Positions 36,461 to 60,418 of a DNA stretch of 64,000 nt are shown here, in pieces. A program made the translations under genes and the position numbers. Numbering within the stretch: the stretch's first letter is position 1; each line of letters begins with the position of its first letter. The stretch is from Escherichia coli (GTDB taxonomy: Bacteria; Pseudomonadota; Gammaproteobacteria; Enterobacterales; Enterobacteriaceae): the NCBI GenBank assembly GCA_025336685.1, contig GCA_025336685.1_4717.1; one strand, 5' to 3'. The notes under the pieces are model-generated. The model was not told where the DNA came from, made no database searches, and worked only from the letters and a program-made list of their open reading frames with translations.

Positions 36461-37354
36461 TTATTCGGAAACGTTGTAACCGAACACCGCTTTACCGTAG
36501 GTGTGAGTACCGTCAGCTAATGACAGCACCAGCACGTGGTTGTACGTAGCGTTAACACCCTTGTCGGTAGACTCGGTGGTAGCACCGTTGTAGACGAAAG
36601 TAGCCGTTTGCAGATTGGCTTTCAGCTCGGTGATGATCTCATCACCCACACCCGTCTGCTCTTTGATCAGCGTGGTCAGGTTACCCGCCAGGCTTTCATC
36701 GATCTTGGTTTCATCACTGGTAATAGCTTGTAAACCTGCGGTGTAGGTGCTGAAGTCTAACGGATAGGTTAACAGACGCGCTGAGGTCTTGGTACCATCG
36801 CCTTCATCAACGTAGGTTAACTTACCCAGGTTGGTAACCTTGATGATGTTAGCCAGATCCAGCGTGGTGTTATAAACTTTAACTTCAACGGAACCGTACC
36901 AAGCCAGCGAATCTTCTTTGGCCTGCAGGGTGATCGTCTGGATACCATGATCGTCGAAGGTAACCGGCGTAGCTAACGTATCGGCTTTGATGTCTTTCGT
37001 TTTATCTAAGAACTTCTCACCGGAAGGCGTGATCATACCGTAGCGTTGAGCTACAAGGTCAACCACGTCACCAATAGTGGTGTTAGCATTAACGTTAACG
37101 CGTACGGCGATCTTCTGGAACCACTTAGCCAGATCCAGACGATGATAGGTAACATCGCGGTCATTGAAGTAAGGTGTACCTTCACCAGGGCTAAGCGTTA
37201 AAGTTGCATCTGGAGCAGAATCGCTTTTGGATTTAAGAACGTATTTAAGGTCGGTGGGTTTGAAGTTGGCACCAGTGTCGGCGTTGAGTGTGTTAATCTC
37301 ATCAACGATAAGTTGCCAAGGTGTTTTTAAAGTAAGTGATACTTGAGCTGTCAT
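36461..37354 (-). CDS. Putative virion structural protein, paralogue family C (YxDR ... AW(T/Y)GSV motifs)
   Basis: Shares motifs with 37498..38040, 48415..49320, 50237..51088 and 51099..52046; codon usage biased towards preferred codons. Confidence 0.55.
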   Translation of the reverse strand: MTAQVSLTLKTPWQLIVDEINTLNADTGANFKPTDLKYVLKSKSDSAPDATLTLSPGEGTPYFNDRDVTYHRLDLAKWFQKIAVRVNVNANTTIGDVVDLVAQRYGMITPSGEKFLDKTKDIKADTLATPVTFDDHGIQTITLQAKEDSLAWYGSVEVKVYNTTLDLANIIKVTNLGKLTYVDEGDGTKTSARLLTYPLDFSTYTAGLQAITSDETKIDESLAGNLTTLIKEQTGVGDEIITELKANLQTATFVYNGATTESTDKGVNATYNHVLVLSLADGTHTYGKAVFGYNVSE

Positions 37355-37497: not shown

Positions 37498-38040
37498 ATG
37501 GCCTTAGACTTTAACAAAGCAGCGAAATCCCTTCTGCTTGATCTGATCAACACCAAAGCAACCCGCGCACTGTCCGAAGAAGAACTGCAGTTCGGTACTC
37601 CGGCGGCATCTTCCGAAAATGCTAAGAACACCGTTATCCAGCTGAATGCTGCGGCTGAAGCAGAAAACCTGCAGGGTACTCAGCAGTTCTACTACGATCG
37701 TCTGGCTCTGTCTGACGTTTTCGCTGATGTAACCAGCGATGTTACTTTCGAACTGCCGCACGGTACTGACAGCATTAAGGCTTCTGAGCTGGTAAGCAAG
37801 CTGGTCACCAAGTTCGGTCTGGCTTCCCTGACCGGTGAAATCAATGAAGAAACCTTCCAGCTGTCCGCAGGTACTGTTGGTCAGGTAACCCTGACTGCGA
37901 TCGAGGGTGGTATGGTATATACCGGTACTCTGCAGGTTGCCCTGACCTACGCAGCAGCACCGAAAGACAATCTGGCAACCGTTCTGGCGGATAACGTAGC
38001 TGATGGCTTCGTGAAACCTGAAGTTGCTGTCGTTGGCTAA
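37498..38040 (+). CDS. Small putative major virion/decoration protein, paralogue family C, with strongly biased codon usage
   Basis: FYYDRLALSDVF and GMVYTGTLQVAL motifs; heavy use of CTG, GGT, ACC, GCT, GAA codons; SD AGAGGA upstream; apparently monocistronic. Confidence 0.6.
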   Translation: MALDFNKAAKSLLLDLINTKATRALSEEELQFGTPAASSENAKNTVIQLNAAAEAENLQGTQQFYYDRLALSDVFADVTSDVTFELPHGTDSIKASELVSKLVTKFGLASLTGEINEETFQLSAGTVGQVTLTAIEGGMVYTGTLQVALTYAAAPKDNLATVLADNVADGFVKPEVAVVG

Positions 38041-38239
38041 TAAACACATAGAGCAATAGTATGGGTTTTGTACAGCTCGGCTATTGCTCTTCTACAATTT
38101 GGTTGTAACAATCTGCGTGGTTGCACGCTTATCTTTCTCATTGAACGCTTCGTATGAAGCGTGGTGTTGAAAGGGTTGTGGATCTCCTCAAGCGGCCAGG
38201 GACCCAGACCAACCTGAATAAACACAAACACATGTTAAG

Positions 38240-38335: not shown

Positions 38336-38971
38336 TTATTCAACACTGAAACCGTTCAAACAGATGGCTTCGTAACGTTTACGTTCACGGCGTTTGCGTG
38401 CCTGCCAACCGTAAATGAACTTCTCGTCTTTCTCACGACGTTCCGCTAATTCGATGTAATAGGTGCTCTGCATGTCCAGCATTGCATCGATGAGATAATC
38501 CTTACCGGTTGCGCCACGCTTAGCGATGTAGGCATCAAGAGCCGCCAGTGTTTTGGGACCCATTGCGCCATCAGCGTCGATATTTTTCCAGTAAGTTTGG
38601 CGGTTGTTCATGACGTTCAGATAACGCTGAAGGTTCTTAACCGGTACGGTTTTGCCTGCGTTGATACCCAGGTCAAAGAGACGATCAGCCAAGAACACGG
38701 AACGTTTCATGACCTCATCAAGCTTCATCTTATCCCAGAAGTGGGTCTTGTAGATGAAGAACGCCATTTCCGTGGTAAGGTTACGCATATTACCGTCCCA
38801 CCCGAATTTCGTTTTCAGCGTGGTTTTGTACTGATCCGCAAGCGCTTTCGTAATGCCGTGGTTCGTGATCCCACCAGAGTCATCGGGATCGTCGACGTAA
38901 CCTGCTTCGATGCTAGTTTTATCACGAATGATAAATTCGCAAGTAAAATCTTTTTCAGTAATCTTGGCCAT
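38336..38971 (-). CDS. Endolysin: GH108-family lysozyme with C-terminal peptidoglycan-binding (PG_binding_3-like) domain
   Basis: N-terminal IEAGYVDDPDDSGGITNHGIT matches the GH108 E...GGY.DDP.D.GG.T..GIT signature; C-terminal half resembles PG_binding_3. Confidence 0.7.
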   Translation of the reverse strand: MAKITEKDFTCEFIIRDKTSIEAGYVDDPDDSGGITNHGITKALADQYKTTLKTKFGWDGNMRNLTTEMAFFIYKTHFWDKMKLDEVMKRSVFLADRLFDLGINAGKTVPVKNLQRYLNVMNNRQTYWKNIDADGAMGPKTLAALDAYIAKRGATGKDYLIDAMLDMQSTYYIELAERREKDEKFIYGWQARKRRERKRYEAICLNGFSVE

Positions 38972-39097: not shown

Positions 39098-41146
39098 TCA
39101 AATACCTTTGGTTCCCTTCACGTGATGTGCAATTTCTTCAACCATTGCACGCAACGCACGAAGCTGCTGGTCGTGTTCGTACCAACCGCCCAACAGAACC
39201 CCGCTATACACCATGGTGTCAAGACTTAACAGTCCTTTATCTGATACGTTGATCATTTCCGGGAACTGTTCTTGAACACGCTGTGCGATGACACCGATCT
39301 TCTCTACATCAGGATCGTAGTTGTGACGGAAACGGGCAAGCCCGCTGCGCGCCATTTCACGTAAACGTTCGCTAAGAGATTCTGGATGGTCTTTCAGGTA
39401 ACGGATGTCATGTTTACTACGCTCATCTGAACGGATGTAAGCGTTAGGAACATCGATGTTACTGTTGAAGTACAGTGCGCTACCACCACCTGCAGAGTTA
39501 CCCCAATAGAAGCGTGTGATCTCCCCACCGCCATTTTCCGTGATGATAACATGTTTACCTAAACGCGTGCCACCATTGCCGTCAACGAAGACCAGTTTGT
39601 TTCCGCTGTAAGAACCCCAGAACAAACGTGTGTCGATGATGTGCGTTGCAGCGAGACGAGCGTTACGCGGTGTAGAATACACGGTGTTAACATCTTGCTG
39701 CGCTTGCGCATCGGAAGCGATACCGTAGTTCTGTACGTTCCCTAAACCTACCTGCGCTTTCGTAACAGCATGTGGGTTATCTCGACGGTTAGCGTGAGCG
39801 TTAACCAGATCGCCCGCCAGTTTTTGAATAGCCCAGTTGGTAGACTGTGGTGTCATGTAACGGTTCGTTGCAGAACCACCTTGCGCCTCAGCTTGGTTAG
39901 CGGTTGGGTAGTTCTCAACGCTTCCTAACCCCACTTGTGCTTTAGACACTTGGTGTGGGTTGTTCTTGTCAGCGATGTGTGCATTAAGCGGAACTAACGC
40001 AAAGGTCTCAATGGACGCTTTGGTTGTGTTCGGTGCCATTAATCGGTTAGCTGCAACACCGGCACGCGCTTCATCCTCAGACGCCATTGGGTAGTCTTGT
40101 ACATTCCCTAACCCAACCTGCGCTTTGGTTACCCTGTGTGGGTTGTTGTAATCGGCTTTATGTGCGTTAAGCGGAATCAATGCGAACTGTTCAATCGCTG
40201 CAACGGTACGCAACGGCGTCATGAAACGGTTGTTCGCGGTTCCGCCCTTCGCCTCGCTATCCGAAGCGGTAGGGAAGTTATCAACGTTCCCAAGGTTAAC
40301 CTGCGCTTTGGTGACGCTATGCGGGTTATCTTTACGGTTAGCGTGAGCATCGACTAGGTCACCAGCCAGTTTAGCGATTGCCCATCCAACCGTTTGTGCG
40401 GTCATGTACCGATCAGGTGCGGTACCGGCTTCTGACTCCGCCTTGTTTGCGGTAGGGTAGTTCTGTACGTTACCTAGTCCAACTTGGGCTTTGGTGGTTT
40501 CGTGTGGGTTATCGGTACGGTTAGCATGCGCGTAATGCAGATCGGTAAGATTTTTATCCGCTGCTTGCATGTCTTTGCGTAACTGATCGATTGCTGCCCA
40601 GAGACGGTTATCGGACGCAGCGTCGCCGATAAGTATCGCGGCTTTCAGTGAATAGATCGCTAAGCAAAGATGTTCGGTACCGTAGATAGCACTAACGTGG
40701 TGGATGTGTGGTTCAGGCGGATAAAGTTCCGGTTTGTTCTTGATGTCGTCCCAGTTGATCGGACGATCGTCAAGTTTGAGTTCTTCGATAGCCTGATATA
40801 ACGCGTCAATAAGACTTACGTAAACACCACCGATGATACGATAGTCGTTAACTAACGTACCCTCGATGTCATCGTTGATGATGGCGATAGCCGCACAGAT
40901 TTCTTTACCGGCGTAAAGCGTAGCGTCCTGATACAAGAAGATGGGTTTGTAGTCCACGCCTCGCACCAGTGTCTTACCGGTAAGCTTTTCAGTGATGACC
41001 AGACTTTCGGTGAAGAACGGTCCGCCGTCGAGGGCGTAACATTTATTCTCGGTTCGTGGAACGGTGTGCTCTTCACCAACGATGTGGTTGCTATCGAGCG
41101 TGCCGGTCCAGTCCTCGGGGTACTTCAGGGTAATTGGTGTTGACAT
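39098..41146 (-). CDS. Tail fibre protein with 5 NPHxVTKAQVGLGNVxN repeats and a C-terminal S74-type intramolecular chaperone domain
   Basis: Five roughly 57-aa repeats (H-A-N-R-x-D-N-P-H-x-V-T-K-A-Q-V-G-L-G-N-V); C-terminal SDERSK at about nt 39411-39428 matches the SDxRxK autoproteolysis motif. Confidence 0.8.
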   Translation of the reverse strand: MSTPITLKYPEDWTGTLDSNHIVGEEHTVPRTENKCYALDGGPFFTESLVITEKLTGKTLVRGVDYKPIFLYQDATLYAGKEICAAIAIINDDIEGTLVNDYRIIGGVYVSLIDALYQAIEELKLDDRPINWDDIKNKPELYPPEPHIHHVSAIYGTEHLCLAIYSLKAAILIGDAASDNRLWAAIDQLRKDMQAADKNLTDLHYAHANRTDNPHETTKAQVGLGNVQNYPTANKAESEAGTAPDRYMTAQTVGWAIAKLAGDLVDAHANRKDNPHSVTKAQVNLGNVDNFPTASDSEAKGGTANNRFMTPLRTVAAIEQFALIPLNAHKADYNNPHRVTKAQVGLGNVQDYPMASEDEARAGVAANRLMAPNTTKASIETFALVPLNAHIADKNNPHQVSKAQVGLGSVENYPTANQAEAQGGSATNRYMTPQSTNWAIQKLAGDLVNAHANRRDNPHAVTKAQVGLGNVQNYGIASDAQAQQDVNTVYSTPRNARLAATHIIDTRLFWGSYSGNKLVFVDGNGGTRLGKHVIITENGGGEITRFYWGNSAGGGSALYFNSNIDVPNAYIRSDERSKHDIRYLKDHPESLSERLREMARSGLARFRHNYDPDVEKIGVIAQRVQEQFPEMINVSDKGLLSLDTMVYSGVLLGGWYEHDQQLRALRAMVEEIAHHVKGTKGI
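39646..40534 (-). repeat. Tandem in-frame coding repeats (5 units of about 170 bp) within the tail fibre gene
   Basis: Repeated protein motif NPHxVTKAQVGLGNVQNY(P/G)xA and recurring DNA words such as CAGGTTGGGTTAGGGAACGT variants. Confidence 0.6.
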
Positions 41147-48414: not shown

Positions 48415-49320
48415 TTATGCCACGTATAACGTTAGATAACCGTCGATGAGCGTATTCATAACACTGAGTTGAAGTACAACAGCTTTACGAGCGTCTGTAC
48501 GTACACCAAATGGTAGTGTTTTGAAATGCTCTGGATCGGCTATTACTCTCGCATTCTGCAAGTTGAGCGGTCCAGGCGTTGCCGACAATACCCAGCGATC
48601 GTTGGCCGTAAGACCATCGATCTCTTCAGAGAGACCCAATTGCAGCATGTTCATTTCTGCAATTAGCGCCTCTGATTGCATATCACCTGAGGTTAACGTA
48701 TACCCATCAGTAAGTGACGCTAGAACATCATCAGACATGAACCAGTTGTACGAAACAATAGCGCCCGGGAGTTTATCACTATCTCGATCGATGAGATAAT
48801 TCAACCCAGCCAACATATTGTTGCGAATGAGGTTGTTGAGGTCGTTATGTCCTGAAGTTAACTCAACAAGTAATTGACCAACCCATACTTGGTTACCAGG
48901 TTTAGGTGTTATCGCAACATGTATCGGTGATTTGGATTTATCCAGATCCGCGTCGACAATCTCGGTTTTATTGAGAAGGATACCGTACGTTGATGCTAAG
49001 ACAGGTAATATCTCAGAGACCTTGGTTAGTGTATCTAAGGTTTCGATCTCGATGGGCCAGCGGTGCTGTCCGCCAGGCCAAATACCCAGTTTACCAAGAT
49101 CGACGCGGTTATAATAGATGTCGACAGAGTTCACCAGCCCTGAACCCGGTTGGGGATGCACGGTTAACTTGCTGTTACGCTTGTACCCTGTGCTTTCAGA
49201 AGCCTCACCGATAACCAGTTTATCCAGCGTTACGCCTCGAGCGTCGAAATCGCTATGCTTTCGAATCAGCCGAAAGAGGATTTCTTTCGATTCTAACCCT
49301 AGGATTTCACTGTACTCCAT
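48415..49320 (-). CDS. Putative structural protein, paralogue family C
   Basis: IYYNRVDLGKLGIW and QVWVGQLLVEL motifs align with the other family members. Confidence 0.5.
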   Translation of the reverse strand: MEYSEILGLESKEILFRLIRKHSDFDARGVTLDKLVIGEASESTGYKRNSKLTVHPQPGSGLVNSVDIYYNRVDLGKLGIWPGGQHRWPIEIETLDTLTKVSEILPVLASTYGILLNKTEIVDADLDKSKSPIHVAITPKPGNQVWVGQLLVELTSGHNDLNNLIRNNMLAGLNYLIDRDSDKLPGAIVSYNWFMSDDVLASLTDGYTLTSGDMQSEALIAEMNMLQLGLSEEIDGLTANDRWVLSATPGPLNLQNARVIADPEHFKTLPFGVRTDARKAVVLQLSVMNTLIDGYLTLYVA

Positions 49321-49545: not shown

Positions 49546-49614
49546 CCCAATTTCAGAAATAACCGCGCAGTACTCTTCAATTACCCGGAGAGTTTAGCCA
49601 CATTGAGATATTCG

Positions 49615-50220
49615 TTAATATCCTGATGGTGTCCAGACCAAAGAGACTCCAGCTATAATCGTAGTACTTCCGGTCGCTACCAGAATTCCTGTTGTTGGAA
49701 TATCCGGTCGGGGCGGGTTGAGGTTCTTGTCGGTCGGATGCCATTCGATAGTCTGAGCAACACCATCGATGTACTTGGTATATCGCATGGAGCGGACAAC
49801 GTTATCGAAATCGATGCGACGACCGTAATAACAGATGTACTTTTTACCGTTTTCCAGCGTCTCAATACGACGTAACCCAAATCTAGCACGTTCGTCCGTG
49901 GTCAAATCGTTACCAACTTCACGCATCACGAAAGGTTTGATTTTCCATGGTGAAAGATCGCTTGCTTCGTGAGCGATCGGCATCGAGGAAGGGATGCCGT
50001 TAGCGTTGCGGATGAATTCGTGACCTTGGTTGCCGATACAGAAGTAACGTACAGCAGGATTACCCTCGGGGTAAATCTTTGATTGAATCTGAAGCTTTTC
50101 GTTCAAGGTGCTGTGTTCTTCCCACGCATGAGGAAGACCGAGCGTAAGGTTCGTTTGTACTTGACCGCCGATAATCGTACGGACGATACGATCGGTAGCA
50201 CGGATTTGTGTAGAAGCCAT
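49615..50220 (-). CDS. Hypothetical protein (201 aa)
   Basis: ORF in the co-directional structural block. Confidence 0.5.
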   Translation of the reverse strand: MASTQIRATDRIVRTIIGGQVQTNLTLGLPHAWEEHSTLNEKLQIQSKIYPEGNPAVRYFCIGNQGHEFIRNANGIPSSMPIAHEASDLSPWKIKPFVMREVGNDLTTDERARFGLRRIETLENGKKYICYYGRRIDFDNVVRSMRYTKYIDGVAQTIEWHPTDKNLNPPRPDIPTTGILVATGSTTIIAGVSLVWTPSGY

Positions 50221-51098: not shown

Positions 51099-52046
51099 TT
51101 AGCCTTGTTCTTCTGGAGAACGACCCTGGAGGCTTGCGGTATGTCCGTCGACGTTGTAATAGAAAATCAATGGACCGCCGACAGCAGTACAGTAGTTTTC
51201 ATCCAGACTGATCTCGATACCGTATTGGTAACCTGCTCGTGCTGGAATACGTCCGCCTAACTCGCCGTTGAAAGCCACTTTAGCGTTATACAGGTTATAC
51301 GGTGCGATGTTGTCGTCTAATACCCAACGATCGGCGGTCATTTCAGCCAGAAGATCGGCGACCACCACATCGCTAATGACCGTACCTGTTACCAGCGAAG
51401 CCAGCAACTCACCGTAATCGGAAGTATCACGACTGTAGCTGTAGATTTCACCGCTAGCGCGTACGCCTTGTCCGAAGAACTTAAGACCATCAAGCTCTTT
51501 GATTGCGATAATATCATCAAGATTCGGTACACGCGATTTCATCAAGATACGAACACTTCCCGTCCAAGCCAGGCAATCAGATACGACACGGAGCAATTGT
51601 CCGTTAACGGTATCCCAGTTAAGTTCGTCGTTGACAATTTCTTCTGCGGTAAGGCCGAGACCGAAACGTTCTTTGATGATAGGCCAGATATCACGCATCT
51701 TGGTGGCATCTGGTGCATCGATAAGAATAGGTGCTACGTTACGTAGATACGCACCGATGTTAATACGATCGTAATACAGCGTCGTCGAACCTTCGTAATC
51801 GTCTAACTCGGTAAGCTTAGCGGTTGCCGTTGCCGTAATCTGGGTATCGCGCTCGTAGGCGCTTTGGTTGGTGGTTGGTGTCCCTAAAACCAATAATTCA
51901 GGGGTTAGAACATGTTCTCCGTTCTGAGGTGGGTTATCGTGGTTGATAAGACCATACACGAGATCGGATGAGGGTAAAGAGACGTCGACCGGGTAAAGTT
52001 CGGTGTCGTCAATAGTTGTTACCGTATCACTCACGGTGACCTCCAC
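51099..52046 (-). CDS. Putative structural protein, paralogue family C
   Basis: LYYDRINIGAY, LAWTGSV and NYCTAVGG motifs. Confidence 0.55.
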   Translation of the reverse strand: MEVTVSDTVTTIDDTELYPVDVSLPSSDLVYGLINHDNPPQNGEHVLTPELLVLGTPTTNQSAYERDTQITATATAKLTELDDYEGSTTLYYDRINIGAYLRNVAPILIDAPDATKMRDIWPIIKERFGLGLTAEEIVNDELNWDTVNGQLLRVVSDCLAWTGSVRILMKSRVPNLDDIIAIKELDGLKFFGQGVRASGEIYSYSRDTSDYGELLASLVTGTVISDVVVADLLAEMTADRWVLDDNIAPYNLYNAKVAFNGELGGRIPARAGYQYGIEISLDENYCTAVGGPLIFYYNVDGHTASLQGRSPEEQG

Positions 52047-52093: not shown

Positions 52094-54574
52094 TTAAGCG
52101 TCCTCGATAGGCAAAGGTTTAACAATCAAACGATTGAGCGGATTCGATAGACGCATACTGACAGGCTTATACGCAACATGATTCGTCTCACTTAGAACCG
52201 CTGACCTGAAACGACCATTCACCTGTTTGTAGATTGGATCTATCCAAAGACCTTGAAGGTCGCGCTTACGGAAACGTTGTTCGAACGGTTTGATCGGGTT
52301 TATGGTCAGCCCATGCAGCGACTCCGACAGTAAACGCTCACGAAGGTCGCGTGGTGCCCGACCCGGGAACGGTGCAAGCCACAAACCATCGAGTGGGTTT
52401 TTACGGAAACGTAACGAGATGGGATCACTGATGACTTGTGCCCAATATTGCGTACTGAATCGAACCGTTTGGGTATTCTCGTAACCGCTACAGTCACACC
52501 AGGTTGGTTTCGGAGGTGCTTCCAAACTTTCAACCACCGATTCGCGCCAGTTCGTCATCGGGTTGTTATCATGTACGAATTTGATAACTTCCGTAGCCTG
52601 GTTATCCGTATCATGAACGTTTGCCTGTGCCCAGTCTTCCCACAGTTCTTCACTACCACTTACTAAACTCGAACCAAGACGAACGGCGATTTTGTTTAGT
52701 GGTTTGATTGGATCACTGTTGATTGTCTGGATAAAATGGATGGTGTAACTACTCAATGTCTTAAGCAGCTGCAGCATTCCGTATTGAATATCCTTAAGAC
52801 TGGTGACATCTTCCAAATCTTGACCGGTGGCCTTTGTGAAGATATCGAGAGCCAGAATTCCCGCCTCTTCTTGACTGATTGCGTCAAGCTCCCAATCCAT
52901 CGCTAAGAACCATTCCTTGTAAAGCTGCCCAATACCGAAGTCGACACCAACATCCATGTAAAAGTTTTCAACGATGGCTTCAGCCATACCTCGAGCTTGA
53001 TAATGCTCTTGGAGCTGGTACATGAACTGATGACGACGCCAGCCCTGGTAGATCTCGGTAACGACGTTGAGAAACTCTTCAGTACTGACGACCGGACGCA
53101 ATGTTACTTGCTTATCCAAACACCACCAGATCAGTTTATCGGGAATGATAGCGGGATCGGTAATGCTACGGAGATGGTCGAATGTCGGTAGCGTTAACAC
53201 CCTGACATGGTTAGCATGGATCTTAGGTACTTCAATCAGCGTCATGCCCATCGAATAGTTCAGCAAATACAAGAACAGCTTGTATGCATCTTTCATCGAC
53301 ATCGTCATGGTATCACCCGTCACCGGGTTGGTTGTCGTTAACCGTGACTGGTACATGCCTATAGCGCTAAGATGAATCCATTCGTTCAGTAGGAAATCAT
53401 ACTTAGGATACAATTCACTGTCTGTAAGGTCTTCCGCTTCACTTTCCAACACCTTGGTCGTTAAGGTGTTGTTGTCATGCATCGACATTTTCTCTATCGT
53501 GCGGTTAAGCTCGGTATAATACTCCGCTTCGTTATCCCGCGCTAAAGGGAACTGTTGCTGCATCACGGTGGTGACCTTACGCCTTACCGTGCCGTTGCCG
53601 ACGATCTCTTGAAGGTTAAGTGGTTTACGCTCCATGTAAACGGTAGGTTTTAACGTCTGAGGTATCTCGGAAGCGTCTTGTTTGATCGAGAACGCACCGA
53701 TTGGAATTCCACGTTCGGTTAATACCTTTTGAATGAGCTTATCGTAGTTTTCCGTTCTGCCCATGTTTCTTTCAACGTAAGCAATGTTACGATAAAACCA
53801 GAGCATTTGAGATTCGGTCATGTATCGCTCGAATCGATCAAGACCTTGATGGCTTGCCAGATAACTCCAGATATGGAAGCTATGGGCATAATGGGTATGA
53901 CAGTTTTCCCAACGAATACCTTTTATCATCTCAGGTATTTGTGTGAATAGAATGGCGTATAACGCAGGCCAATGAAGCATATCGACGCTTTCATACGCCG
54001 GGTGTTCCCAACGTCTAAAGTAATCATCGATTTCTTGCTGTAAGCGTGGAATAAGATTGGCCTCGCGCGATTCAACCTCTCGTGTATCGTACCAGAGAAT
54101 CTCATGATTGCGTGCCGCAATTGCTTTCTCGATATCGATGGGGTTAAGGATACCCAAGATCAACATACGTTGTTCTGGATACCGCGCAATTAAACGATTG
54201 AAATAATCTCCGCCGTACGCGTATTCCCTTGCTGTCATGCGATGTCGTAACATGTTTTCCTTGGTGAACTCGATCTCTTCGAGCGTATCCAGGGAATTTA
54301 CGGTCATCATTGTCTGACAAGGATGATACTCGCCAGCGAGATTCATGTAGTATAACCACGTGCGTGGGTCGTCCCCGACGGCCATCTGGTAGACTTCGGA
54401 AACCTTGAGGTTTAACCGTTCTGCCGTGATGTCGCTTTTAATAATCAGGGTGTCCGTTAGACGCTGCACGCTTTCCGAATAAAGCTGATAGTCAGTGTTG
54501 GACACGATCGGTCCTCCAAGGAGCCAGTGTAAATGAACGATATAAATAAAGGGCGCGTCGCCCTCGAACGTCAA
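52094..54574 (-). CDS. Large hypothetical protein (up to 826 aa) with C-terminal tandem peptide repeats; 5' end uncertain
   Basis: The track start at 54574 is a TTG overlapping the divergent gene; first in-frame ATG is near 54385. C-terminus has 2-3 repeats of (D/N)PI...RFRK..L.GLW. Confidence 0.5.
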   Translation of the reverse strand: MTFEGDAPFIYIVHLHWLLGGPIVSNTDYQLYSESVQRLTDTLIIKSDITAERLNLKVSEVYQMAVGDDPRTWLYYMNLAGEYHPCQTMMTVNSLDTLEEIEFTKENMLRHRMTAREYAYGGDYFNRLIARYPEQRMLILGILNPIDIEKAIAARNHEILWYDTREVESREANLIPRLQQEIDDYFRRWEHPAYESVDMLHWPALYAILFTQIPEMIKGIRWENCHTHYAHSFHIWSYLASHQGLDRFERYMTESQMLWFYRNIAYVERNMGRTENYDKLIQKVLTERGIPIGAFSIKQDASEIPQTLKPTVYMERKPLNLQEIVGNGTVRRKVTTVMQQQFPLARDNEAEYYTELNRTIEKMSMHDNNTLTTKVLESEAEDLTDSELYPKYDFLLNEWIHLSAIGMYQSRLTTTNPVTGDTMTMSMKDAYKLFLYLLNYSMGMTLIEVPKIHANHVRVLTLPTFDHLRSITDPAIIPDKLIWWCLDKQVTLRPVVSTEEFLNVVTEIYQGWRRHQFMYQLQEHYQARGMAEAIVENFYMDVGVDFGIGQLYKEWFLAMDWELDAISQEEAGILALDIFTKATGQDLEDVTSLKDIQYGMLQLLKTLSSYTIHFIQTINSDPIKPLNKIAVRLGSSLVSGSEELWEDWAQANVHDTDNQATEVIKFVHDNNPMTNWRESVVESLEAPPKPTWCDCSGYENTQTVRFSTQYWAQVISDPISLRFRKNPLDGLWLAPFPGRAPRDLRERLLSESLHGLTINPIKPFEQRFRKRDLQGLWIDPIYKQVNGRFRSAVLSETNHVAYKPVSMRLSNPLNRLIVKPLPIEDA

Positions 54575-57859: not shown

Positions 57860-60418
57860 TTACTGCTCTTCACGTTCCAACAGATACTCGGAAGCGGTAA
57901 TACCGTTTACCGTACGTACCGCTTTCAGACGAGTATCGTCACTCAGAATCACGGTAACAGACTGCAGACCTTTTACTTTGGTCTCGAAGGTCTTGAATAC
58001 CTGATCCAGCATACGAGCAATGCTTGGGTTGGTTGCAGCCGATGCGTGAGTGTAACCGTTCTGGTTCAGCTTCAGAATCTTGGCGTTGGTTGGTACACGA
58101 AGAACAACATGCGGACGCATTGCGAACACACTGTGGTTAAACCAGTAAGCATCGTTACTATCTTCGTCAGTGACGATGTCTGGATTAACACGCATGTCTT
58201 CGGTAGCCGCACCCGCCAAACGACGTTCGATTTCGTCAGCATCCAGAGAGCCGTCCTTCTCCAGTTCTGCACGATACTCACTCATGGCAACCAGATGACG
58301 TTCACGATTCGCTGCAGATTTTTCGTGAGCGGCTTTCAGGTAGTCATGCATGTTGTACAGTTCTGCCATGGAAAGACGAATGTTCCACTGACCTTCGCCG
58401 TCACGATTGCAGTAGAGACACTTCAGCATGTTGACCCAGGTGTAGTAGCAATTGGAGAACTCATCTTCAATGAACTTCTGATCCATTTTAAGATCGTGAA
58501 TCAGCCAACCGGACAGTTCTCCGATATCATCAACGAAGCTAGAAATGGTGGTTTCAGAGAAGTTCTTCGGTACGATACGTTTGATCAGCTTGTTAACGTC
58601 TTTGGTCATGCTATCATTCAGGAAATGCCAGATACGCAGAGGAATGACATCACGATACTGTTGCATGATCTGACGATAAGCTTTGATATCGTCGCTACGA
58701 CCTTTATCAATAGACAACGCGTCCAGGAATTCATGGATAGCATCCAGCTCTTTGTCGGTATAGGTTCCCAGATAGGAATTGACCGTGGCAAGGAATGCTA
58801 ATGCGTCGTTTTGGTTGACGTCGGTGTTGGTCTGCTGAATGATCGCTACTGCAGCTTTGGTTTCAGCATCCTCAACGCTTGACGCTGCGATTGCGTCGGT
58901 AACAGTAAACAGTTTCATTTCGCGCTGTTCGCCGACAACGATCGGTTCGCGTTGAACCGGTTTGTTAAGACTAACGCGAACAACTTCTGCTTGCGCGATA
59001 CGATCCAGTTTTACCATTTCCTGCTCCGCCATACGACGAGCGGTCGGATCTGATTCAAGTTCGATGTATTCCACTTCTTCCTCCGTGAGGGATGTAATGT
59101 CAACAATGGTTTCATGAAGAATTCCGTTTTCGTCGATACGTGCTCGACGAGCGAAGTGTCTGAAGTCATACAACGTTGGCCAGCGACAATTAGGCGCATA
59201 GTCTTTGGCCTTCAGACGCATCTGCATAAATTCTTCATGTTGAACAACACGACCGTAACGCTTAGCATCTTCGGTCGCATCAATTGGATTAACGGTCTTT
59301 GTTACCGTAGCAGAACGAGCCGTACGAATGGGTTCCGGTTTAGTCTGCACTGGTTCAGGTTGAACGGATTTCTGTTGTCCAGCCTTAACATGCCATTCGG
59401 GTTCTTCGTACCGTTCAGCAAATTGCTCGGCTGCTGCAAAGATATCATTGATACCACCAATATCTCCTTCTGGATTCGTCGAATATATCCGTGGTTGCGG
59501 TGCCTCGTAACGCGGCGCTGAGGTAGCAGATGCGTCGTTAACGACAGGATCGTCATCGCCAACATCATACAAACGGTTGAACGCACAATCCTTCGAATCG
59601 ATGTACGATGGAGTTTGTGGTTGGATAACCGTCGGTCGAGGCTGTGCGCCGTATCCCGGCATTGTTGGAGCCATACCACGCATAACTGCTGGGTTAGGTT
59701 GGTATTGTGGTTGTGGGTAGGTTCCGCCATACGTGGGATATGCAGGCTGTTGCGGTTGACCGTACCCACCACCAACCATCGCATTTGCTTGCGGTCCACG
59801 GTAAGTCATCCCCAGTTGCATCACCTGTTGCTTCAGACCGCGGGACTTCTGCGCTATTTGTGCTAGACTCCCACTTTTATTTAGCTGCGTGTACTTATTC
59901 GCGGCTTCCGGGTTAATGCGCGATAATTCAATCGCACGATAATACTCCGGGTATTGATTGGCTTCAAAGAGCCACGTTACAAGGTGATACAGCGCAACTG
60001 TGCTCACAGCAGCAGAGACGATCTGGTCGTTGGACGCATTCTGCGGCATCGGGTTGATGTAAGAGAATACGTTCCAGCAACAGTCTTCAACAAGCGATTC
60101 CATCATCATGTCGTTATTGGTGTAACGTGAGACGAACTCGGTTTGTATTTTATCCTGTTGGGCGAAGTCTTTCAGGACATTGAAGACAGCTTGACGGATT
60201 TTGACGATCGTCGCTTCTTGGGTGATGAAGTTATAGTTCTGCTGATATGATGGTTGCTGGTACTGTGGTGGTTGATAGGTGTTATTCGGGTATGCGCTGT
60301 ACTGCGGTTGCTGGTACTGTTGTTGGCGAACCTGTTCAGCCGCATAATTAATCGTACTCGCATAAGGGTTTTCGTTGTAGCCCATTTGCTGATACATGTT
60401 GTTACTGCCATTATACAT
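57860..60418 (-). CDS. Large hypothetical protein (852 aa) with Gln/Tyr/Pro-rich low-complexity N-terminal regions
   Basis: N-terminal 65 aa (YQQPQYSAYPNNTYQPPQYQQPSYQQNY) and a second QPxY-rich segment around aa 215-270. Confidence 0.55.
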   Translation of the reverse strand: MYNGSNNMYQQMGYNENPYASTINYAAEQVRQQQYQQPQYSAYPNNTYQPPQYQQPSYQQNYNFITQEATIVKIRQAVFNVLKDFAQQDKIQTEFVSRYTNNDMMMESLVEDCCWNVFSYINPMPQNASNDQIVSAAVSTVALYHLVTWLFEANQYPEYYRAIELSRINPEAANKYTQLNKSGSLAQIAQKSRGLKQQVMQLGMTYRGPQANAMVGGGYGQPQQPAYPTYGGTYPQPQYQPNPAVMRGMAPTMPGYGAQPRPTVIQPQTPSYIDSKDCAFNRLYDVGDDDPVVNDASATSAPRYEAPQPRIYSTNPEGDIGGINDIFAAAEQFAERYEEPEWHVKAGQQKSVQPEPVQTKPEPIRTARSATVTKTVNPIDATEDAKRYGRVVQHEEFMQMRLKAKDYAPNCRWPTLYDFRHFARRARIDENGILHETIVDITSLTEEEVEYIELESDPTARRMAEQEMVKLDRIAQAEVVRVSLNKPVQREPIVVGEQREMKLFTVTDAIAASSVEDAETKAAVAIIQQTNTDVNQNDALAFLATVNSYLGTYTDKELDAIHEFLDALSIDKGRSDDIKAYRQIMQQYRDVIPLRIWHFLNDSMTKDVNKLIKRIVPKNFSETTISSFVDDIGELSGWLIHDLKMDQKFIEDEFSNCYYTWVNMLKCLYCNRDGEGQWNIRLSMAELYNMHDYLKAAHEKSAANRERHLVAMSEYRAELEKDGSLDADEIERRLAGAATEDMRVNPDIVTDEDSNDAYWFNHSVFAMRPHVVLRVPTNAKILKLNQNGYTHASAATNPSIARMLDQVFKTFETKVKGLQSVTVILSDDTRLKAVRTVNGITASEYLLEREEQ

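Follow-up and report, generated by a model that had tools for sequence, protein, structure and literature searches.

Tandem motifs in the C-terminal tail of a Goslar-type baseplate wedge protein resemble the linker of DUF7941 proteins

What is the role of the tandem peptide repeats at the extreme C-terminus of a long minus-strand open reading frame (ORF; 52094..54574) in the window, a 64,000-nucleotide stretch of Escherichia coli assembly GCA_025336685.1 (contig GCA_025336685.1_4717.1) that is a close relative of the nucleus-forming E. coli jumbo phage Goslar (Escherichia phage vB_EcoM_Goslar)? The product of the ORF is an inner-baseplate wedge protein by sequence, fold and synteny. The wedge protein itself is known and structurally characterised, and the new element is the repeated motif in its tail, which resembles the interdomain linker of DUF7941 proteins. 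We put at roughly 0.6 the probability that the repeats are an array of protein-docking motifs carried by a disordered tail in the peripheral baseplate.

The wedge protein and the repeats in its tail

The ORF is 95.9% identical to Goslar gp035 at the nucleotide level and 97.8% identical at the amino acid level. Its product matches phrog_3222 (E=4.3e-210), and a phmmer search of PDB sequences returned the Goslar chains 11lx_Bh and 36za_sR (E=0) together with chain 9xqs_C (PHIKZ128; 9.5e-111), the phiKZ gp128 protein being 34% identical to the window protein. When the AlphaFold2 model of the window protein (single chain, 120-sequence alignment) was compared with 9xqs_C using Foldseek, the match had E=3.5e-47 and a template modelling score of 0.79 for the target, with 606 aligned columns for 610 modelled residues. 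Homologues are present in 290 phage records (tblastn), and those of phages 201phi2-1 (gp213), phiKZ (gp128) and EL (gp104) are virion proteins by mass spectrometry. The gene neighbourhood is that of the family (upstream, a divergently oriented gene like gp36/gp129; downstream, genes for DUF7941 and DUF7208 proteins), and the operon order gp128-like, DUF7941, DUF7941, DUF7208, DUF7941 is kept in Goslar, in the phage that encodes homologue P0003 and in RAY. In the relevant passages of the virion studies, cryo-electron microscopy and mass spectrometry of Goslar and phiKZ, not of the present phage, give six copies of the wedge protein per virion baseplate; phiKZ gp128 and two gp87 subunits form the baseplate wedge heterotrimer, in which the first gp139 dimer touches gp128 (gp128 passages of PMC13250141), and Goslar gp35 is located in the upper wedge with gp172, gp63 and gp32 (gp35 passages of preprint 10.64898/2026.04.21.720040).

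A preliminary description of the repeats had read the protein as 826 residues long, a length that calls for a start at the TTG at 54574. With that start the frame would run into the divergent gene, which begins at 54533, and the upstream TTG is probably not used. Translation from a GTG at 54505 gives 803 residues beginning MSNTDYQ, as in the Goslar annotation and in the 803-residue PDB chain 11lx_Bh. Since these two starts agree and the sequence GGAGGA lies 6 nt upstream, the GTG is almost certainly the true start, and we correct the length to 803 residues. The gene is laid out as follows:

52094..54505, minus strand: wedge-protein gene, homologue of Goslar gp35, phiKZ gp128 and 201phi2-1 gp213; 803 residues, stop codon at 52094-52096
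54512..54517, minus strand: GGAGGA, the Shine-Dalgarno sequence, lying 6 nt upstream of the start codon (GTG at 54505)
52676..54505, minus strand: folded wedge core, residues 1-610; alpha-helix-rich, conserved across chimalliviruses, predicted local distance difference test (pLDDT) values mostly 80-97
52097..52675, minus strand: C-terminal tail, residues 611-803 (~190 residues), predicted to be disordered

The repeats are encoded at the ORF's 3' end, on the minus strand. We compared local BLOSUM62 alignment scores with those of 5000 shuffles: repeats r1 (DPISLRFRKNPLDGLW...) and r2 (NPIKPFEQRFRKRDLQGLW...), which are residues 717-758 and 759-803 in the 826-residue numbering, align with a score of 71 against 19.1±3.9 for the shuffles, and r1 and the degenerate r3 (PVSMRLSNPLNRLIV...) with a score of 41 against 17.9±3.6, neither value being equalled in any of the 5000 shuffles (0/5000 in each case). 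The similarity between r2 and r3 was not significant in the same test. The internal repeat scores are thus significant, and the initial picture of two clear repeats and one degenerate repeat, located at the extreme C-terminus, is borne out, with r3 being alike to r1.

The length of the unit is another matter. Start-to-start distances are 45 and 40 residues, and the preliminary description gave a unit of about 38 residues; comparison with the relatives P0002 and P0003 (61-63% identical to the window protein), which have five to six units of 19-30 residues that each end in L-x-G-L, shows that this is a double unit and that the elementary unit is half as long, ~20-25 residues (about 21), with the form Φ-x3-Φ-x4-L-x-G-L-x-Φ-x-P (Φ, hydrophobic; x, any residue). 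Its core, L-x-(G/R)-L-x-Φ-x-P, is present in four intact copies (LDGLWLAP, LHGLTINP, LQGLWIDP and LNRLIVKP) and no long ORF in the 64-kb window has it outside these four places. The fifth copy, RFRSAVLSETNHVAYKP, is decayed and has an intact counterpart in P0002 and P0003. The individual units are listed below, with scores and ranks that refer to the DUF7941-linker matrix described in the next section:

52370..52426, minus strand: unit 1a, DPISLRFRKNPLDGLWLAP, residues 694-712; 3.7 bits, rank 2 of 788 windows
52295..52351, minus strand: unit 1b, RDLRERLLSESLHGLTINP, residues 719-737; second half of repeat 1 as first described
52235..52300, minus strand: unit 2a, NPIKPFEQRFRKRDLQGLWIDP, residues 736-757; 4.0 bits, rank 1 of 788 windows
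52163..52216, minus strand: unit 2b, GRFRSAVLSETNHVAYKP, residues 764-781; decayed, L-x-G-L core lost, aligns with unit 1b (P0002 and P0003 have intact ELNGLYP and ELDGLYP here, ~8 bits)
52115..52165, minus strand: unit 3a, PVSMRLSNPLNRLIVKP, residues 781-797; the degenerate third repeat of the first description

At the DNA level, the array has just one exact repeat of 12 nt (the RFRK codons, at a spacing of 135 nt), and Tandem Repeats Finder reported nothing for the repeat DNA, which indicates that the duplication is old and has been maintained at the protein level. A comparison of the window phage with Goslar gives 98.7% identity in the core and 91.8% in the repeat region, where all nine substitutions spare the L, G, L, W and RFR(K) positions. 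As the changes are so few, this sparing is only suggestive; its estimated probability by chance is ~6%.

The motif in the wedge-protein family and in the DUF7941 linker

We assembled a family set of 121 homologues and defined the tail of each as everything past the conserved ...RLG... that closes the core. L-x-G-Φ is found in 76 of the 121 tails, with at least two copies in 55 of them and nine copies in one; tails hold from zero to at least nine of these cores, and more copies come from looser variants, LDQLNYP for example. The total of 201 occurrences compares with 47±6.6 in shuffled tails, and the density is 1.00 per 100 residues in tails and 0.15 in cores, a 6.7-fold difference. The tail consensus reads Φ(-5)...(D/E)-L-D-G-L/F-x-Y-P, with the family form Φ-x4-L-D-G-L/F-x-Y-P. 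Motifs are spaced by a median of 19 residues with peaks at 14, 16, 19 and 21, and 44 of the 76 proteins have their last copy within 15 residues of the end of the chain. Judged from these sequences, the array of short motifs is family-wide and fast-evolving.

The 'W-type' units of the window phage (LxGLW..P) are shared with two Erwinia phages, RAY, whose gp7 has four such units including DLQGLWIDP, identical to unit 2a, and pEa_SNUABM_37, whose gp8 has six. These tails surfaced only through full-length alignments; a tblastn search of 50,697 phage records with the last 146 residues found Goslar only. One member of the family, P0014, is a natural fusion of 1310 residues in which a wedge core is followed by four LDG motifs and a DUF7941 domain; it is encoded on four metagenomic contigs, of which the two shown here (L007:6001-9933 and L008:5208-9140) come from different samples.

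DUF7941 (PF25613) proteins, such as Goslar gp22 and gp23 and phiKZ gp126-gp127, carry an interdomain linker. An exhaustive profile search yielded 1366 DUF7941 proteins, compared with only 4 close relatives from a word-indexed search with the gp33-like protein of the window. From an alignment of 125 full-length representatives and the five paralogues from the window, the linker reads, column by column, D/P/S, L (73%), x, x, Φ, Φ, T, N, T, x, L (78%), D/P/N, G (74%), L/F (73%), x and Y (72%), and the residue preferences of the wedge-protein tails match those of the linker, of the form D-L-x-x-Φ-Φ-T-N-T-x-L-D-G-L-x-Y, at nearly every position. The motif common to both, D-L-x-x-Φ-Φ-x4-L-D/N/P-G-L/F-x-Y, lies in a disordered segment in both cases. 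In the wedge protein, however, it is in tandem at the C-terminus and lacks the flanking DUF7941 globular domains, and the units of the Goslar clade differ further from the linker by a Trp at +4, a Pro at +7 and a basic RFRK upstream.

The resemblance was quantified with an ungapped scoring matrix of 16 columns built from 118 DUF7941 linkers only, at a threshold of at least 10 bits:

Wedge-protein tails: 18,189 windows scanned, 77 at or above 10 bits
Wedge-protein cores (a search space four times larger): 72,138 windows scanned, 2 at or above 10 bits
Shuffled tails, five runs: 18,189 windows each, 1-3 at or above 10 bits

The ten columns upstream of L-x-G-Φ, which had no part in defining the tail motif, score a mean of -5.05 before the tail cores and -13.35 elsewhere in the tails (Mann-Whitney p=1.7e-32, although p-values here overstate independence because the sequences are related). 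Within the window protein, units 2a and 1a take the first two places among the 788 windows, and the four highest scores together come to more than in 1999 of 2000 shuffles. W-type units in relatives reach 10.8 bits (RAY gp7) and 14.6 bits (SNUABM_37 gp8); since these pass the threshold and P0002 and P0003 contain canonical-looking units, we assign the Goslar-clade units, in diverged form, to the DUF7941-linker motif class.

A disordered tail and what it may bind

Structure prediction, proposed as a check in the preliminary description, gives high confidence for residues 1-610 and a pLDDT below 50 for residues 613-803, so that the repeat tail is predicted to be disordered. In P0112, a homologue with nine very regular 14-residue repeats (ELDGLxYPDVxLxx), AlphaFold2 likewise predicts no secondary structure, with pLDDT values of 25-29, which argues against an autonomously folded solenoid. 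For phiKZ gp128, 610 of 724 residues are modelled in 9xqs_C; one Goslar chain sequence (36za) ends at residue 595 and the other (11lx_Bh) has all 803. These numbers leave the tail of phiKZ gp128 outside the model, and probably that of Goslar gp35 as well. Even so, virions contain the tail, as the Goslar virion mass-spectrometry table includes the peptide DLQGLWIEPIYK from repeat 2a of gp035 in purified particles; there are no further tail peptides among the listed rows of that table. On the predictions, the tail is probably intrinsically disordered.

Of the reiterated binding module first suggested for the repeats, what stands is an array of short docking-type motifs in a disordered tail, and of the two ligands then envisaged the partner protein is favoured, by the disorder of the tail, by the reiteration of the motif in relatives and by its resemblance to the DUF7941 linker. 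In the DUF7941 passages of preprint 10.64898/2026.04.21.720040, AlphaFold3 predicts head-to-tail oligomers formed by docking of one protomer's linker onto the following protomer's N-terminal domain, purified Goslar gp22 forms filaments by negative stain, and DUF7941 proteins are proposed to make up a fibre cloud on the peripheral baseplate. The folded core of the wedge protein (residues 1-610) sits in the inner baseplate wedge; by analogy, its tail, with four intact units and one decayed unit, would offer at each of these five a linker-like peptide to the N-terminal domain of a DUF7941 protein. Candidate partners would be the products of genes directly downstream (gp34, gp33 and gp31) as well as gp22 and gp23, which are abundant. 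In this role the wedge protein might serve the DUF7941 fibres of the peripheral baseplate as a multivalent anchor or as the site of their nucleation. The binding itself, DUF7941 proteins as the partners and a receptor shared by the diverged W-type units of the window phage are our inference.

With DUF7941 proteins named as the partners of the tail units, the docking array is a tentative proposal to which we give somewhat less than even odds, as it is drawn from motif resemblance. Its extension to all gp128-family tails, as arrays of 'linker mimics' in which each repeat would be a DUF7941 docking peptide and one wedge protein would anchor several filaments or fibres, is possible but more doubtful.

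Several observations weigh against DUF7941 docking, besides the relatedness of the sequences compared. The tails of 45 of the 121 family members have no L-x-G-Φ. phiKZ gp128 and 201phi2-1 gp213, of the same family as the window protein, have no motif match in their tails, and phiKZ, whose gp128 gene sits in the same operon, does carry baseplate DUF7941 proteins; the motif therefore cannot be the sole means by which DUF7941 proteins are attached. The window protein's own units are weak against the linker matrix, at 4.0 bits or less: unit 1b, which has the same spacing as the linker of the gp31-like protein (DLNNLIRNNMLAGLNY), scores -6.8 bits (rank 16 of 788), and unit 3a scores -16.8. W-type tails have their aromatic residue at +4, not +5, and they do not co-vary with W-type DUF7941 linkers in the same phage, as neither Goslar nor RAY has DUF7941 linkers of the W-type. 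Nor does the number of motifs rise with the number of DUF7941 genes downstream, and a few cases point the opposite way: P0006, whose short tail is free of the motif, has an uninterrupted run of at least 11 DUF7941 genes directly downstream (L010:11152-20085), and P0103 has one of the longest repeat tails, with many motifs, and a single DUF7941 gene downstream. The docking of the DUF7941 linker is itself, in the corresponding passages of 10.64898/2026.04.21.720040, a prediction by AlphaFold3, with negative-stain filaments in its support, rather than a solved interface. Finally, the low pLDDT of the tail may stem in part from its shallow alignment.

What makes DUF7941 docking attractive in spite of these points is that it turns a conserved wedge protein, whose tail reiterates a motif of the type predicted to join DUF7941 protomers, into a concrete attachment hypothesis. 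In the passages on the peripheral baseplate, the 2026 virion structures of phiKZ (PMC13250141) and Goslar (10.64898/2026.04.21.720040) leave much of this region unmodelled and the attachment of DUF7941 proteins open, and the C-terminal tail and its repeats go unmentioned in the gp128 passages of the former and the gp35 passages of the latter. The number and type of repeats are a simple read-out from sequence and vary strongly between related phages. If the hypothesis is right, this number, which ranges from zero to at least nine and evolves fast, would set the valency of the host-recognition fibre cloud in nucleus-forming jumbo phages, and the point at which the cloud is attached to the baseplate would be identified. 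If it is wrong, a modest annotation point remains: a real, lineage-variable repeat in the disordered tail of a known structural protein.

By an analogy drawn in passages of these papers, the counterpart in phage T4 is gp7 of the (gp6)2-gp7 core bundle, which connects the inner baseplate to peripheral proteins: gp7, too, is present in a single copy in the helical wedge bundle that carries the periphery. No sequence or fold match to T4 gp7 came up, a Foldseek search of the PDB giving only phiKZ gp128 at E<=0.001. T4 gp7 attaches its partners by folded domains and is not known to use repeated motifs in a disordered tail for this.

Among the alternatives, it is unlikely, though not fanciful, that the tail instead runs along the spoke formed by gp32 (DUF7208), each unit binding one of five gp32 dimers as a tether or length ruler. 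The spoke passages of PMC13250141 and 10.64898/2026.04.21.720040 describe gp32 as the spoke protein and give five gp32/gp139 dimers for the Goslar and phiKZ spokes, the innermost beside gp35/gp128; the Goslar clade has five units and P0002 and P0003 five to six, ~110 extended residues could span roughly 35 nm, and gp32 is encoded in the same operon as the wedge protein. A ruler of this kind is difficult to reconcile with a motif number that runs from zero to at least nine across the family, or with phiKZ, where five gp139 dimers are found with a gp128 tail that has no recognisable motif, and the motif resembles the DUF7941 linker.

We consider it improbable that the units form a folded structural repeat, such as beta-hairpins or a small solenoid, and so give the peripheral baseplate a rigid arm, missed by AlphaFold2 on account of the shallow alignment. 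Such an arm would account for the regular spacing of the motifs (modes of 14, 16, 19 and 21 residues) and the retention of the tail in virions, and the D-G turn between hydrophobic residues could form hairpins. However, the repeat regions of both the window protein and P0112 have almost no predicted secondary structure (pLDDT 25-45), proline makes up ~9-12% of repeat regions, copy number and spacers vary strongly, and the tail is unmodelled in the phiKZ map, while one Goslar chain sequence stops at residue 595.

The remaining alternatives turn on charge. Conserved Arg/Lys, Leu and Trp had been noted in the repeats at first sight; what is conserved across the family is L-x-G-Φ with an aromatic residue and a proline, and only in the Goslar clade are the units of the basic RFRK kind, the repeat region there having a net charge of +3 to +7 and a pI of 9.4-11.2. 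By comparison, a net acidic charge is seen in 44 of 51 repeat regions across the family (median pI 4.1), the W-type tails of RAY and SNUABM_37 (pI 4.1) among them. Arg/Trp-rich peptides commonly bind lipopolysaccharide and membranes, so that in the Goslar clade alone the basic, Trp/Leu-rich units (RFRK...LxGLW) might contact the host outer membrane, which is negatively charged, or its lipopolysaccharide when the baseplate lands. We find this very improbable, as the basic character is absent from those 44 regions and the wedge, in the structural passages cited above, belongs to the inner baseplate and not to the distal tip. Nucleic-acid binding, the other ligand first proposed, has only the Arg/Lys-rich units of the window phage in its favour and can be set aside almost entirely: as part of the baseplate wedge the protein is, according to the same passages, distant from the DNA, no Pfam family, nucleic-acid-binding families included, was matched in the wedge protein or its tail, and what is conserved is hydrophobic residues, glycine, aromatics and proline rather than charge.

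DUF7941, spoke and other genes in the window

The window encodes the following DUF7941 proteins, with linkers scored by the same matrix, and a DUF7208 protein:

51099..52046, minus strand: gp34-like DUF7941 protein, immediately downstream of the wedge gene; PF25613 E=3.8e-63; linker NLDDIIAIKELDGLKF, 20.9 bits
50237..51088, minus strand: gp33-like DUF7941 protein; PF25613 E=3.6e-47; linker DIAGMMKTTVMAGLNFP, 19.6 bits
49336..50220, minus strand: gp32-like DUF7208 baseplate spoke filament gene; PF23838 E=1.5e-60; interrupted by compensating small indels
48415..49320, minus strand: gp31-like DUF7941 protein; PF25613 E=3.6e-53; linker DLNNLIRNNMLAGLNY, 25.6 bits
37498..38040, plus strand: gp23-like protein, with one domain at the N-terminus plus a linker at the C-terminus; identified by position and sequence pattern only
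36461..37354, minus strand: gp22-like DUF7941 protein, homologue of the Goslar filament-forming protein; PF25613 E=2.2e-51; linker DLANIIKVTNLGKLTY, 22.1 bits

The plus-strand ORF 37498-38040 is probably the gp23 homologue, to go by its place and its sequence pattern: its linker motif, NLATVLADNVADGFVK, at residues 158-173 of 180, is the protein's best window (8.8 bits), and the protein ends directly past it. We rejected the minus-strand ORF 37504-38049 as gp23 because it is the plus-strand ORF that looks DUF7941-like by position and pattern. The two ORFs overlap and both encode ~180 residues; the minus-strand product is Cys-rich and looks spurious, and a scan of it against Pfam and PHROGs was empty.

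The gp32-like gene carries, at 49570-49668 (minus strand), six indels relative to Goslar gp032 (-1, -2, +1, -2, +1 and +3 nt, net 0); the ORF stops after 201 residues, and the Goslar-like frame returns ~30 codons on. The indels may be artefacts of sequencing or assembly, or may genuinely disrupt a structural gene that appears to be essential.

Elsewhere in the window, an 852-residue protein (57860-60418, minus strand; Goslar gp038, hypothetical) adjoins a gene annotated 'polymerase' and has a weak match to Pfam Cas9_C_2 (E=0.0029, 17.8 bits, where the cut-off is 27). Endolysin-type domains, GH108 and PG_binding_3, are encoded at 38336-38971 (minus strand), and at 39098-41146 (minus strand) lies the gene of a 682-residue protein with a C-terminal Peptidase_S74 (endosialidase chaperone) domain, which is probably a fibre.

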